IMG/VR virus record: IMGVR_UViG_3300028833_000055
Span: 1 to 64,000 of that record
Source of the DNA: a virus
Taxonomy: Duplodnaviria; Heunggongvirae; Uroviricota; Caudoviricetes
DNA: 64,000 bases
Reading direction: 5' to 3' (one strand)
This document shows, piece by piece, positions 33 through 13,942 of the stretch (position 1 is the stretch's first letter; each line of letters begins with the position of its first letter). A program made the translations under genes and the position numbers. Under the pieces are notes generated by a model. The model saw nothing but the letters and a program-made list of their open reading frames with translations, searched no databases and was not told where the DNA came from.

Positions 33-109
33 AAAAATTACAAGGTTCTTAAACACAATTAACAATTTTGATTTGTTTGATATTATTGCTGTATGAACCT
101 TTACCAAAG

Positions 110-182
110 AGCCGGCGGGAGGACTCGAACCTTCGACTTGCGAATTACGAATCCGCCGCTCTACCAACTGAGCTACGCCGGC
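110..182 (-). tRNA. tRNA-Thr(CGT), CCA not encoded
   Basis: Cloverleaf: acceptor GCCGGCG/CGCCGGC, D arm GCTC/GAGC, anticodon arm GCGGA-TTCGTAA-TTCGC, T loop TTCGAGT. Confidence 0.93.
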
Positions 183-184
183 AT

Positions 185-430
185 TTACCATCGTTTTGGT
201 ACGATGGAGAGAACCTGTACTTGAAACCACTACAACCTAGGCAGCGGCGTACATCACCTGTTCGGTGTTTCTATTAAAGTTGCCATTTAACTGACCTATG
301 AACCTCTCCGTTTCCCATACTCATACAGCATCAATTCCAATGTCATCCCCATTAGTTTCTTTTTTTAATTGTGGAGATGCCGAGACTCGAACTCGGGTCT
401 ACCATACTTTCCTAAAAACATCAACGAAAT
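185..430 (-). ncRNA. ssrA: Circularly permuted (two-piece) tmRNA: acceptor piece about 430-372, linker 371-351, coding piece from 350 to about 185
   Basis: The 3' tRNA-like half (GAC-CCGAG-TTCGAGT-CTCGG-CATCTCC-A) lies upstream of the 5' half (GGGGATG...GGAATTGA). The acceptor stem GGGGATG/CATCTCC has G3:U70 and A73. P2 pairing is TGCTGTAT/GTATGGTA. A tag frame follows TTAAAT. Outer ends are approximate. Confidence 0.88.
237..284 (-). other. tmRNA proteolysis tag frame (A)GNFNRNTEQVMYAAA-stop
   Basis: GGC resume codon after TTAAAT, C-terminal YAAA and TAG stop. Gly-initiated tags are typical of Bacteroidota ssrA. Confidence 0.82.
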
Positions 431-437
431 CCATTTG

Positions 438-541
438 TGAGTACTACAAGACTCGAACTTGTACCTTTCTCCGTCCGGAGAACGCTCTTCTCCTATTCAC
501 ACCATACCGAATCACACGGATTGGTTTATCGCTAAGCACTC
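438..541 (-). ncRNA. Atypical tRNA-like RNA (expanded D region, no canonical anticodon loop)
   Basis: Acceptor GAGTGCT/AGTACTC+A and T arm ACAAG-TTCGAGT-CTTGT. The anticodon position holds TTCTCC-GGAC-GGAGAA (4-nt loop), and the D region is about 50 nt. Confidence 0.6.
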
Positions 542-9246: not shown

Positions 9247-9280
9247 AAAAAATGGGATGTGAATCACATCCCATTTTTTT
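9247..9280. terminator. Bidirectional intrinsic terminator
   Basis: AAAAAATGGGATGTG/CACATCCCATTTTTT between convergent genes. Confidence 0.8.
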
Positions 9281-10826
9281 AATTCTCTTCAGTTTCCTCC
9301 GTATAACCGAGTTGTGTCTCAACATCAACTTCACCGGCGTCAATCTGCTTCGCCTCTCTGAAACGGAAGGCGTTGGTCTTTAATTTAAACGCTTCGGGTT
9401 TGACATCGTTGTCTATACGGACAACAAGTCCTTCACGGGGAACCTTGGTCTTACACATTGTCTCGTCCATCTCCATTCCGAACTGCTTGTCTTCCTCAAG
9501 ACGGCTAAGAACCTTCTGACTCCAATATTCTTCGGATGTGTCAATATCCGGATAAAGGTCTCCGAGACGACCGTGATATAAAGTCTTGATAGGTTTTATC
9601 TTCGTTTCGAGTTCGGGATGTTCGTCGAGAAGTTTCAATGTCCACCTATATACATCCTGCACATCCCATTCCTTATGATTTCCTTCCTCATCGGTTTCGG
9701 TAATCCTGTAAGGCATCAAGATATTCTCACCCTGTTTACACCCATAGTCGTATCCCTTCTGTATCCAGCTCGTTGTTCCGGTGACATATCCTGCAATCTC
9801 ACCGTAGAGTGTCATTCCTTTATTCAGGAACGGATATATGAGTTTTCCGTATTCCGACCAGATGTCAAGTTTGTAGAATCCCTTTCCAACATCCTTGTTG
9901 ATATACTTGTTCTTGATAACACCTCTCGATGAAGTGACCTCACCGTACTCAATCCGGTACTTCGGATAGACGTGTTCCCTTTTCTTGTGGTCTATCGAAC
10001 TCAATACCCTTCTGAAAAGGTTCCTTACCCTCCTGATGAACTTCTCAAAGAAGTTTTCCTCACAATATTTCTTCGTGAGGATATTACCGCAGATAAAACT
10101 TGTACCGTGTACCTTGACACTTATATTGACAACAGTGTCCGGTGTGAATCTCCAGATGTTATCCTTCAACTGGTTCGTGTCATAGTGGAAGGTGAACTGA
10201 CCTTCAATCATACGGTCCAACTTCTCAATCCTCTTTTTTCTCTTTCTCTCCCTTCTCGTAGTTCCGTCACCGATGTTTCTCGGCTGTTTCACCTCCGGAA
10301 CGAAGGCCTTGACGAACAATTCGCCGTCAATGGTGTCGAACTCGAAAGGAACTACAACACCGTCCTCGTTGGGTTTGAAGCAGTTTTCGAAATCGTACTT
10401 CCGTACATCCGGTTTCCACTTCGCTAGCGAACTTATCGGGAACAAACATCCCTCCGAAGCACACCCACGAAGTTTTACGATACGGACACGACCATGCTTG
10501 TTGAAGTATCCGACCTTCTTCTTCGCTTCATCCTCCTTTCCGTCATCAATGAGTTTCTGCACCTCCTCGTAGTTCTTGTTAAGATGTCTTTCACCAATCT
10601 CGAACTGGTTGTTGGTGGACAGAAAGTCCTTGTTGATGGCGGTTTCAAGCTTACAGTACACCATAATGTCTCCGGTCTTGACATCATTCTTGCCGACAAC
10701 CACCTGGTATACCCCTCCGATGTTCGTCTTTGCAAGAAAATCGGAACCCTCTATCGGGATGAGTTCGCCAATCCTTACAATCTGGGCACAGTATTCAGAT
10801 TTAATCCCATCACTTTTTGTAAACAT
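9279..10826 (-). CDS. RNA ligase, DRB0094/Rnl5-like, with N-terminal OB domain
   Basis: AQIVRIGELIPIEGSD N-terminus; motifs VKVHGTS, LYGEI, REGLVVR, FKLK. Confidence 0.8.
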   Translation of the reverse strand: MFTKSDGIKSEYCAQIVRIGELIPIEGSDFLAKTNIGGVYQVVVGKNDVKTGDIMVYCKLETAINKDFLSTNNQFEIGERHLNKNYEEVQKLIDDGKEDEAKKKVGYFNKHGRVRIVKLRGCASEGCLFPISSLAKWKPDVRKYDFENCFKPNEDGVVVPFEFDTIDGELFVKAFVPEVKQPRNIGDGTTRRERKRKKRIEKLDRMIEGQFTFHYDTNQLKDNIWRFTPDTVVNISVKVHGTSFICGNILTKKYCEENFFEKFIRRVRNLFRRVLSSIDHKKREHVYPKYRIEYGEVTSSRGVIKNKYINKDVGKGFYKLDIWSEYGKLIYPFLNKGMTLYGEIAGYVTGTTSWIQKGYDYGCKQGENILMPYRITETDEEGNHKEWDVQDVYRWTLKLLDEHPELETKIKPIKTLYHGRLGDLYPDIDTSEEYWSQKVLSRLEEDKQFGMEMDETMCKTKVPREGLVVRIDNDVKPEAFKLKTNAFRFREAKQIDAGEVDVETQLGYTEETEEN

Positions 10827-10828
10827 AT

Positions 10829-11587
10829 CTACTTTTCTTTTAATATAACTTCTTTTTTAATTCCATTTTCACCATTGGTGGTGTATTTTCCACCCGTACA
10901 CCTCCCGATGGTCTCCTTTATCTTGTCCCCCATCTTTTCAGCATCTAAAGGTTCTATTTCAATACCTAATGTCTTGCTGACGATATCGAGTGCAAGCGCA
11001 CCATAACTTTCTTCCAATTCTTTCTTTTTGTCCATTTCCTTATTTTTATTTTCTATTATCTCCTTTTCCATTTTTATAATTTTCCGTTTCAACGATACCA
11101 CACGAATACATCCAAGTCTGGCGAGATAAAGTCTCTGTTCGATGGTAAGTTTAATACATCTTTTGTTCTCGACCGGACATTTGGCCACATCTATCCAGTC
11201 ATTGTCCTCATAGAAAACCACCACACCCGCCTTGACTCTCCAATCCTCCTTATTTTCGAAAGAATCCAGAAAATTCAGCACCTTGTCCTTTATCGAAGAC
11301 GGGACACAATAGTAGAAATTCTTGATATAGTCGGACTGATGGTCGTGTTTTTTCTTGAAATCCGCCAAGAAATCTGAAAATGAACGCTTTATCTCTATTT
11401 CCGTAAGATAACCGGAATTTGTGCAGACAAGCACGTCACATTCGTGCCATATCGGTAGAGCGCCTCCTTGACAGATGGCGTTGAATACCACGATTTTTTC
11501 AAGAAAATTGAAATGACTCGACTTTACAAGGGCGACTTCTATCTCATACAAACTTCGTTTCGTATCCATACCTACATCTTTCCACAA
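10829..11587 (-). CDS. PD-(D/E)xK nuclease-like protein (MmcB-like)
   Basis: ECDVL...TEIEIKRSFSDFLADFKK...FYYCVP. Confidence 0.6.
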   Translation of the reverse strand: MWKDVGMDTKRSLYEIEVALVKSSHFNFLEKIVVFNAICQGGALPIWHECDVLVCTNSGYLTEIEIKRSFSDFLADFKKKHDHQSDYIKNFYYCVPSSIKDKVLNFLDSFENKEDWRVKAGVVVFYEDNDWIDVAKCPVENKRCIKLTIEQRLYLARLGCIRVVSLKRKIIKMEKEIIENKNKEMDKKKELEESYGALALDIVSKTLGIEIEPLDAEKMGDKIKETIGRCTGGKYTTNGENGIKKEVILKEK

Positions 11588-12200
11588 GCCTTGTTACGGA
11601 ATATGTCACACAATTCCCAATATGAAATCGGTCTGTAATTGTTCTGGTCAACTCCGACATCATACTGGTTCTTTCTCAATTTTGCCGGTACATCACCGTC
11701 TATCCCGTAACAGGTACCGTCATTCAAAGTGTGGATATGACCGAATACCTGATAGTCCCCGTTAAAGGCACAGCAGGGATAATGTTCTGCATATATTTTC
11801 ACACCATCCACTTCTATGAAAGCCTTGTCGACCACTGCAATAAGTTTTTCATTCGGACTTTCGTTAAGTGGAATACGGTCGTGGTTGCCTCTGATGAGAA
11901 GAATATTTCCGTTAAGTTTCCTCATAAACTTCAGATACGCCTCCGTATTCGGCTTGTGGATTAGCATAAAGTCACCACAGCAAACCACTATTCCGTCTTC
12001 CGGAACAACCGAGTTCCAATTCTCTATAAGCGTATTGTCCATATCGCTTCTCGATGTGAACGGTCTGTGACAATACTTGCAGATATTAAAATGACCGAAG
12101 TGAGTCAAGTGTCCGAGGTGAAGTACAACTTATCTGGATTGAAAACATCCAGTGTGTACATCCCTCGGACAGTATCTCCTTTATACATTATTTCTTTCAT
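11572..12200 (-). CDS. Calcineurin-like metallophosphoesterase interrupted by a 5-nt insert (candidate translational bypass, or pseudogene)
   Basis: The 5' frame 12200-12105 gives MKEIMYKG...LYFTSDT*. The 3' frame from 12102 gives HFGH...GDF...RGNHD...HYP...GHIH. Removing 5 nt restores the SDTHF motif (207 aa). Confidence 0.8.
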
Positions 12201-13086
12201 TTTCTTTTATTTTACGAATATCTTTATATACTAACCCTTCTTTTAAATTTAATTTTTCACAAATTTGTTTTGCAGAATAACCACAATTATACAGATAACT
12301 TACATTTTCAAAATCTTCTTTTGATTTTTCATTTCTACCAACATAGTTTAAGTCAATAATGTCCCATTTTCTTTTAAGTGGTTCAAAACATATTCCTTCT
12401 ATATATTTTTTCTTAAATCTCTTTAATAATTGTGTATCTCCTATTATTAATCGAGCATAACCTTGTTTGTTTATTTTTGTATGATTGTCTAAACCAAATA
12501 ATCTTTTTTCAAAAATCTTTAAAATATCATACCATGATGAATGTACCTTTATTTGTAAATTAAAATCTTTTCTTTTATGTAAATTTCCAATGTGACCATC
12601 TCCATCTACAAAACCAATAAACAAATACGCCAACATATCAATATCCATATTTTCAAAAATTGTTTTTTGTGGTGGATTATATGTTTTATCACTTTTTATG
12701 TCAAATTTTTCTTCAATTTGTTTTATCACATCAACATTCATAATGGAAAATTCGGCACAATCAATATCTGTTCTATATTTTACTTGAGTTTCTGCTTCAA
12801 TATATTTTTTAAATTTTTCAACAGACACTTTATCTTCTCCATTTTGTGTAAATCTAACTCTATAATTTTTATAAAAATGTCCATCTGCCAACAAATATCC
12901 AATCCAATAATATGATTCAGCGGTTTCATTTAAAAGTTTTTCAATTTTACTAGGGTAATTTTTCTTATGTATCTTTTTTCTCGCACAACTTCTACATAAA
13001 AAACTATTTTTGTTTGCAGTAAAACTCTCAAGATTTTTATAAATCTTTTCTTTTCCACACTCAATACAATATCTTTTATATTCCAT
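12181..13086 (-). mobile_element. Free-standing double-motif LAGLIDADG homing endonuclease
   Basis: YWIGYLLADGH and LFIGFVDGDGH motifs, N-terminal CxxC..CxxC, C-terminal HTH-like segment. Visibly AT-rich, with its own CATAAATA motif at 13108-13115. Confidence 0.85.
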
Positions 13087-13170
13087 ATCCTTACTTATAT
13101 TATACTATATTTATGTGTGTATCATTTGTAAAGTTATTTTCTGGATTATTAACCTCCAATGTGTACATAA

Positions 13171-13476
13171 TTATTTCTTTTTCTTTTCATAAACTTCCAC
13201 AATCGGATTCTTGTCTATCCTTGAATATGTTACATATCTACCTTTGGCAACAAAATTCTCATCCTCAAGTTCACAAGTTTCATCTCCACAGATACCTTGC
13301 TGGAAGTTGTATACCAAATTCATACCACTATAAACAAAACACCCCTTTACATAGTCTTTCTCGATGCTTGAATGTACCGGTTCAATCTTACCGTCACACA
13401 CAAACGACACAGGATTCTCATTTTTAAAAACCGTAAATTTCATAATCTTATATCTTTTCTGAGTTATGAGACTCAA
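13171..13476 (-). CDS. Hypothetical protein
   Basis: ORF in the operon; the true start may be the internal MKFTV. Confidence 0.55.
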   Translation of the reverse strand: MSLITQKRYKIMKFTVFKNENPVSFVCDGKIEPVHSSIEKDYVKGCFVYSGMNLVYNFQQGICGDETCELEDENFVAKGRYVTYSRIDKNPIVEVYEKKKK

Positions 13477-13885
13477 TTAAATCCTTGTACCTCTCATATG
13501 TGTTCCTTATGACACTTTCACCAACGGGATTTGGTCTCTTCGAGTCACGCTCTATACACACTTCCAGCGGTGCATATATGAAACGGTATTCTATCTTATA
13601 CCCAAAGAGTTCTGCCAGCGTCTTGTAGTTCTCCAAAGTCGTCGGGTTCATATTCATATTGTCGGAAACCACATCCTTTCCGGTATCCATCGCCGCCATC
13701 AGGGCCGCAGTTTCAATTTTGGTGACCACCTTTTCGAGTTTAGGGTTGAAAGGAAGTCCCATCATCAGTCTTATGTCGTCACGATTGACTCTTATACGGT
13801 TGTCCGGGTCTTCGAGTACAAACTTTCTCGCCAAAGTACTCTTTCCACTGCCCTGCAAACCTTGATATACATAAAGTGTCTTCAT
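13448..13885 (-). CDS. Polynucleotide kinase-like P-loop protein (Pnk kinase domain only)
   Basis: GLQGSGKST, RVNRDDIR, VSDNMN, CIERDSKR; start taken at MKTLY. Confidence 0.8.
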   Translation of the reverse strand: MKTLYVYQGLQGSGKSTLARKFVLEDPDNRIRVNRDDIRLMMGLPFNPKLEKVVTKIETAALMAAMDTGKDVVSDNMNMNPTTLENYKTLAELFGYKIEYRFIYAPLEVCIERDSKRPNPVGESVIRNTYERYKDLIESHNSEKI

Positions 13886-13942
13886 TTTTAGTACAAAATT
13901 TGTTCGTCTATAAATAAAATATAACAAAATATTACGAATAAG

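Follow-up and report, generated by a model that had tools for sequence, protein, structure and literature searches.

A candidate five-base ribosomal hop within a LAGLIDADG homing cassette in a jumbo phage metallophosphoesterase gene

Known coding gaps and the phosphoesterase locus

The cassette in gene 60 of phage T4 has been described as unique. Its endonuclease, MobA, belongs to the HNH family. Two accounts describe a bypass of about 50 nt in a topoisomerase II gene together with the homing cassette (10.1101/2022.08.31.505936; 10.1101/2024.12.09.627546), and the first of them also reports loss of the nuclease where the gap was kept (10.1101/2022.08.31.505936). Pairing of the exiting mRNA has been proposed to drive the T4 ribosome forward (10.1101/2024.12.09.627546). 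[quoted passage not shown] The mitochondrial byps of Magnusiomyces capitatus are mobile inserts rescued by re-pairing that tolerates an imperfect codon match (PMC5009743; 10.1101/2022.08.31.505936), but they span 27-55 nt, place an unused sense codon in the A site and require special mitochondrial ribosomes. Closest in distance are synthetic E. coli stop hops and +5/+6 hops, in which matched codons flank a stop at the spacing of the 5- and 6-nt classes described below; these were laboratory constructs (Weiss et al. 1987, as cited in PMC5009743 and PMC10732093), and according to a 2016 review in-frame stop hops were unknown in nature (PMC5009743). Finally, inteins in mycobacteriophage RDF metallophosphoesterases also place a mobile element next to an invariant motif, but there protein splicing and not recoding rescues the gene (PMC5050341).

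We analyzed the first 64 kb (64,000 nt, hereafter the window) of IMGVR_UViG_3300028833_000055, a 363-kb virus record of a jumbo phage that is 96% complete. The genome is translated with table 11 and TGA terminates 107 long ORFs, which rules out an alternative genetic code. Shine-Dalgarno sequences are hardly used (25 of 241 starts); the A-rich starts that lack them, together with TAnnTTTG promoter boxes, presumably indicate a Bacteroidota host. On the minus strand an AAA_33 kinase-like gene is followed by a short ORF, a LAGLIDADG gene, a broken metallophosphoesterase gene, an ORF of unknown function and an RNA ligase gene. The cluster of kinase-like gene, phosphoesterase and RNA ligase (window 9279-13927) is retained in many relatives and is likely an RNA repair set. 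Elsewhere in the window (109-461), ARAGORN called a permuted tmRNA (146-461) that overlaps a tRNA-Thr call (109-182), and two entries of the tRNA cluster outside it (355659-355737 and 356154-356229) are a tRNA-like gene whose four-base anticodon call is unassignable and a tRNA-Phe called with AAA as its anticodon. The features of the locus are as follows.

13448-13927, minus strand: polynucleotide-kinase-like AAA_33 gene (context; profile matches).
13100-13168, minus strand: stranded relic of the original phosphoesterase 5' end, 22 codons, M-Y-T-L...N-D-T-H then stop, at the left junction of the cassette (translation; likeness to the active 5' end).
13108-13115, minus strand: phage promoter motif CATAAATA before the nuclease gene (top enriched 8-mer before ORFs of the genome).
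12181-13086, minus strand: free-standing two-motif LAGLIDADG endonuclease gene, 301 aa (PF14528, LAGLIDADG_3, over cut-off; phrog_4645; alignment; model; low GC).
12105-12200, minus strand: ORF1, replacement 5' end of the phosphoesterase, ending F-T-S-D-T then TGA (sequence; homology to strands 1-2 in the model of an intact gene).
12110-12171, minus strand: mRNA stem-loop; its basal stem of 9 bp pairs 12171-12163 with 12118-12110 and stops at the first base of the take-off codon (fold z -3.15; helix test; compensatory changes).
12108-12110, minus strand: putative take-off codon ACT, Thr (sequence; a Thr codon in all 38 Thr-type inserts).
12103-12107, minus strand: five-base coding gap with TGA at 12107-12105 and the putative landing codon ACT at 12105-12103 (sequence; missing from intact alleles; 5-12 nt in variants of relatives).
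11572-12102, minus strand: ORF2, the remaining metallophosphoesterase from the motif-I His, 176 aa, with GD, GNHD, H and GHIH (Pfam; PHROG; 1xm7).
9279-10826, minus strand: RNA ligase gene, phrog_968 (context; profile matches).

The junction (minus strand, 12113-12100) reads GAC ACT TGA CT CAC; the landing ACT shares the A of the TGA stop and the His codon then lies at 12102-12100. The gap falls inside the first metal-binding motif of the phosphoesterase, and joining ACT to ACT yields D-T-H. An initial annotation of this DNA had described the ACT-TGA-ACT anatomy at 12110-12103 and proposed that a hop restores D-x-H while the downstream motifs GD, GNHD, H and GHIH remain intact; the sequence confirmed the anatomy and the intact downstream motifs, and the downstream frame (12102-11572) matched Metallophos (PF00149) and phrog_547. 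Once the gap is skipped, the calcineurin-like set D-x-H, GD, GNH, H and GHxH is complete, and with the five bases deleted in silico the gene aligns to intact relatives free of gaps. The predicted fold of one such relative, L033, matches 1xm7 (E 3.6e-10). ORF1 has three candidate starts, ATG 12200, 12188 or 12161, giving 31, 27 or 18 codons. An overlap with the nuclease gene was stated in the initial annotation; that overlap, of 20 nt, holds only for ATG 12200 or 12188; it disappears with ATG 12161, the one homologous to the start of intact relatives. A genome-wide scan for the same anatomy returned this site alone, apart from one terminator-like false positive, and a search of viral contigs with the exact 28-nt junction gave no match.

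Low nonsynonymous change on either side of the insert had been named beforehand as a test, and it was borne out: dN/dS is 0.095 for ORF2 of the window against the relative L017, with open downstream frames, and 0.23 for ORF1, where the stem damps synonymous change. Over the 20 codons from the motif-I His to the first internal Met, pN and pS were 0.14 and 0.89 in insert genes and 0.12 and 0.75 in intact genes, dS being saturated in most pairs. As judged from these comparisons, both parts of the gene are under purifying selection.

Matched codons and a stem-loop in relatives

Protein searches blind to the junction led to the identification of 73 loci, 20 of which (L017 included) carry an insert at this codon, and DNA patterns contributed divergent genes down to 28% identity. 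After removal of duplicates 38 insert loci remained, with gaps of 5, 6, 7, 8 and 9 nt in 26, 4, 1, 5 and 2 loci, respectively, and a gap of 12 nt was also found among relatives. The insert is thus common to relatives and variable there (38 loci, 5-9 nt) rather than unique to one genome. L017, an independent contig at 85% amino acid identity, has the identical junction with the same five bases. Every gap opens with a stop (TAA in 25, TGA in 9 and TAG in 4 of the 38), and two scans that did not require a stop found no phosphoesterase insert lacking one. Relatives of the TAG type gave no sign of recoding, their short loci making this a weak test. L016 and 76 other pattern matches were rejected as chance hits, not being phosphoesterases. 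The Thr-type pattern had no match in GTDB genomes. Among annotated phage records the nuclease had no match and phosphoesterase relatives were at most 42% identical; these similarity searches identified no cultured phage with the system. A literature search, which covered subscription journals thinly, turned up no paper on bypass in a phosphoesterase gene.

In all 38 loci the putative landing codon coincides with the first AC that follows take-off, with AC at both positions throughout. In about half of these loci the DNA patterns had themselves imposed AC at either end, together with part of the stem's 3' arm, so that only the 20 protein-found and the nuclease-found loci are free of pattern bias, and the loci are related by descent. 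A peptidyl-tRNA that scans the message would be expected to use the first AC. Variants that would use other tRNAs came from a search with the nuclease only, blind to the host gene: the take-off and landing codons are CTG-CTG in L178 and CTT-CTT in L207 (Leu-type), CAT-CAC in L248 (His-type) and ATT-ATA in L258 (Ile-type). L247 has a candidate second-site 5-nt Thr hop, four codons downstream, with a stem of its own. The matching of the two codons, first seen in the window, holds across relatives in which they change together (Thr, Leu, His, Ile), and that landing follows take-off identity in the nuclease-found loci is, as a comparison of candidate sites, the strongest test of the hop. The third bases of take-off and landing codons cross the pyrimidine and purine classes in 7 of the 38 loci, and the idea that both codons always belong to one wobble class was dropped. 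In L201 and L227 a His tRNA would land on a Tyr codon. Because of these two observations re-pairing appears tolerant, and relaxed at the wobble base.

Three of the nuclease-found loci (L201, L227 and L248) have seven-base gaps after the motif-I His codon, some 75-90 nt past the nuclease and behind strong stems (to -38 kcal/mol). Next to more distant nuclease relatives, L199, L200 and L204 carry a single additional base behind the Phe codon of D-T-H-F (L199 reads TTT TAA C, the other two TTT C), and these sites are candidate +1 programmed frameshifts in the same motif. L083, L088, L090, L091, L178, L207 and L258 are candidate natural in-frame stop hops.

An RNA hairpin at the site, expected from the analogy with T4, was found as a conserved stem with compensatory changes. 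The fold z is -3.15 in the window and positive in the intact L003 and L007. A helix of at least 8 bp running through the Asp codon is present in 34 of the 38 insert loci as against 2 of 39 intact ones, the 5' arm having been absent from every search pattern, and in the remaining four insert loci the stem ends one base earlier. The conserved stem measures 9-13 bp and the loop 5 to 44 nt. In the short-loop class the stem is 100% paired with double changes at 3 pairs, which 0 of 500 shuffles reproduced. In the long-loop class 93.7% of positions pair, with double changes at 6 pairs. Relatedness inflates the shuffle test, but slid controls dropped to 22-52% paired. A C-G pair is swapped to G-C in the stem of L178, L180 and L193, and the His- and Leu-type variants have different stems, each ending at its own take-off codon. 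A weak 5-bp hairpin after the take-off codon of the window does not form in L001 or L002. The nascent peptides (10-33 residues) have unrelated N-termini and are not conserved.

The insert loci share with T4 gene 60 the matched codons, the stop directly after take-off (38 of 38) and a 5' stem-loop, which ends at the take-off codon here but 9 nt before it in T4. They differ in the length of the gap (5-12 nt against about 50), the host gene (metallophosphoesterase against topoisomerase), the nuclease (LAGLIDADG against MobA) and the amino acid of the take-off codon (Thr, Leu, His or Ile against Gly). No conserved stem surrounds or follows take-off here, whereas the T4 take-off stem-loop holds the take-off codon in its 5' arm. 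The T4 nascent signal KKYK, 25-30 residues before take-off, is absent from ORF1 with its 10-33 codons, and the internal Shine-Dalgarno sequence that precedes landing in T4 is absent from a gap too short for it. Unlike in T4, a new 5' end takes over from the original one, which stays behind as a dead stub. Since gap length, host gene, nuclease family, peptide signal and take-off stem differ, the phosphoesterase system would work like T4 gene 60/MobA without being a member of it.

The LAGLIDADG gene and the ends of the cassette

The nuclease gene is open, retains the acidic residues of both motifs and encodes N-terminal Cys pairs and a C-terminal helix-turn-helix; D68, D161 and D163 are invariant in the nuclease alignment. 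Its model (pLDDT 92) matches I-AniI by Foldseek (E 1e-7), and a sequence search of the PDB gave no match. The initial annotation had called it an AT-rich gene with its own late promoter. Its GC content is indeed 23-26%, against 40-45% around it, and CATAAATA precedes it; as the most enriched 8-mer before ORFs (13-fold, 63 of 81 copies), this is taken as a phage promoter motif, while the word late derives only from its likeness to T4 TATAAATA. The sole perfect TTGACA-17-TATAAT of the genome lies inside the nuclease gene (12704-12676, minus strand) facing the phosphoesterase, and may be due to chance in AT-rich DNA. No Rfam family, group I introns included, matched in 11400-13400 (E up to 1), and Pfam found no intein.

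That nuclease and gap move together as a cassette had been proposed, and the relic (13168-13100) and the ends of a related insertion show a nuclease cassette inserted at motif I. Similar relics lie upstream of the nuclease in L026, L035, L049, L089 and L178. L049 and the intact L053 are 100% identical up to motif I and 97-100% identical from the His codon on; between those ends L049 has the promoter, the nuclease, a new 5' end, the stem and the gap. These boundaries indicate that the element inserts in the motif-I codons and brings a new 5' end in place of the old one. Mapped on a tree of the 3' domain, the insert must have been gained or lost 13 times, and well-supported branches force at least 10 of these events. 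Sporadic presence and sharp insertion ends at a conserved site are the marks of LAGLIDADG mobility. L007 (3900-4030) is an intact allele that kept the upstream sequence of the cassette and the 5' arm while its motif-I codons are those of other intact genes, and is likely a reversion by recombination, to go by its sequence.

The expectation that the insert occurs only with the LAGLIDADG gene did not hold. A nuclease or remnant is present in 14 of the 38 insert loci and none is detectable in the other 24, and intact genes sit beside 12 nuclease relatives that are more distant. Where the nuclease search led to a locus with a downstream phosphoesterase gene, that gene is broken in about 19 cases and intact in 12; some 30 nucleases that are more distantly related adjoin other neighbours. 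One intact locus has a LAGLIDADG gene, a different one (L060:487-1491), directly upstream of an intact D-L-H allele. Upstream of a Thr-type gap, L118 (9742-10707) encodes not the LAGLIDADG but a Cys-rich protein of 322 aa that matches NUMOD3 weakly, perhaps a swapped nuclease. In L008 the nuclease gene, 700-50 nt upstream of the gap, is broken by stops under table 11, and its coding density is higher under table 4; the stops reflect either decay or recoding.

On the simplest reading the gap would probably serve to block re-cutting: the nuclease would cleave intact alleles and spare gapped ones. Alternatively, the hop could be real but kept for regulation, through release factor, tRNA-Thr supply or ribosome spacing, a purpose that is compatible with the same mechanism. 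Gap and stem persist in the 24 loci without detectable nuclease, and in several relatives the stem covers the start codon. However, the rarity of exact deletion explains this persistence on its own, intact alleles exist with 97-100% identical 3' parts, and L007 regained an intact motif with the 5' part of the cassette kept; we therefore regard regulation as an improbable reason for the gap, though one to be kept in mind.

Competing readings of the junction and the proposed hop

Were the five bases removed from the mRNA, by stem-guided cleavage and sealing by the phage kinase and RNA ligase, translation would be ordinary. Kinase-like and RNA ligase genes do adjoin, and the conserved structure at the junction as well as the direct repeat at its ends would fit. 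Excision nevertheless needs neither an in-frame stop first nor repeats that in every case coincide with an in-frame codon, the gaps of 5 to 12 nt have no common inner sequence, and no intron or RNA family matched in Rfam, which makes this reading very improbable. Just as little speaks for a split protein in which ORF1 ends at TGA, ORF2 restarts at the overlapping TTG (12108-12106) and the chains assemble, as in nrdA split by mobE. Split phage enzymes exist, and TTG-TGA in the window has a counterpart in the ATG-TGA overlap of L079; but a start codon lies no more than three codons from the landing site in only 6 of the 38 insert loci, so that restart cannot be general. In addition, in-frame gaps with one or two stops have no start, there are no added terminal tails, and the Asp and His of one loop would sit on separate chains.

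Extremely unlikely is a plain one-base frameshift (-1 here) or stop readthrough giving a slightly longer active motif. The downstream frame is indeed -1 in the 5-nt class, and L199, L200 and L204, distant loci flanked by nucleases, have plain +1 sites in the same region. Against this, the sequence has no slippery heptamer, tRNA-Thr could not re-pair at -1, and D-x-H spacing is invariant among intact genes. The change of frame needed also varies by locus (-1, +1 or 0) with the same signals, and the 9-nt gaps contain two consecutive stops; consequently, no single frameshift or readthrough explains the set. Finally, inactivation of a dispensable gene by the insert, or an assembly error, is largely refuted and has next to no probability, because even if the enzyme may be dispensable, the same junction in the independent contig L017 argues against chance or error, dN/dS is about 0.1 with open frames downstream, and stem and matched codons are conserved across genes of 28-85% identity.

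We thus favour a hairpin-driven peptidyl-tRNA hop over the gap, within a homing cassette, and on the sequences compared here put its probability at about 0.85. The comparative evidence, namely insert variation, selection, codon matching, the hairpin and the cassette ends, supports the earlier reading of an independent miniature of the T4 system. A mobile cassette made up of promoter, LAGLIDADG gene and replacement 5' end would home into the motif-I DNA of a phage metallophosphoesterase. We infer that the extra junction bases are carried because a replacement 5' end that re-encodes the invariant motif would rebuild the target. The ribosome would unwind the stem-loop and pause while peptidyl-tRNA-Thr occupies ACT and the A site holds TGA. 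With take-off in the P site the 3' arm lies inside the ribosome, and the stem could therefore close only as the mRNA is drawn out; it would re-form as the mRNA exits, pulling the message through and moving the ribosome forward by roughly the length of the stem, a step modelled on the T4 gene 60 driver. The tRNA would release and, five bases further along, re-pair with the first ACN; decoding would restart at the His codon to give one protein with D-T-H. Such a hop would have to beat release factor 2 without a nascent-peptide signal.

The evidence tips slightly towards a wider conclusion: in one LAGLIDADG lineage, minimal recoding switches that need no more than one stem-loop, a stop and a matched codon may have evolved repeatedly, at several of the codons that make up one active-site motif, drawing on at least four tRNAs and all frames, alongside simple +1 shifts. 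Under the hop reading, automated gene prediction would cut these enzymes short, at an internal Met. Few natural cases of bypassing are known, and the phosphoesterase family would be an independent one that makes do with far fewer signals and comes in dozens of natural variants. As these differ in gap length, tRNA, loop size and stop codon, they make both pairing of the exiting mRNA as a sufficient driver and natural stop hops directly testable. If the reading is true, a hairpin that ends at the P-site codon suffices for efficient hopping by bacterial ribosomes. It would also give homing endonucleases a further way to occupy active-site sequence, and with short hops they would have, next to introns and inteins, a third and common means of residing inside genes.
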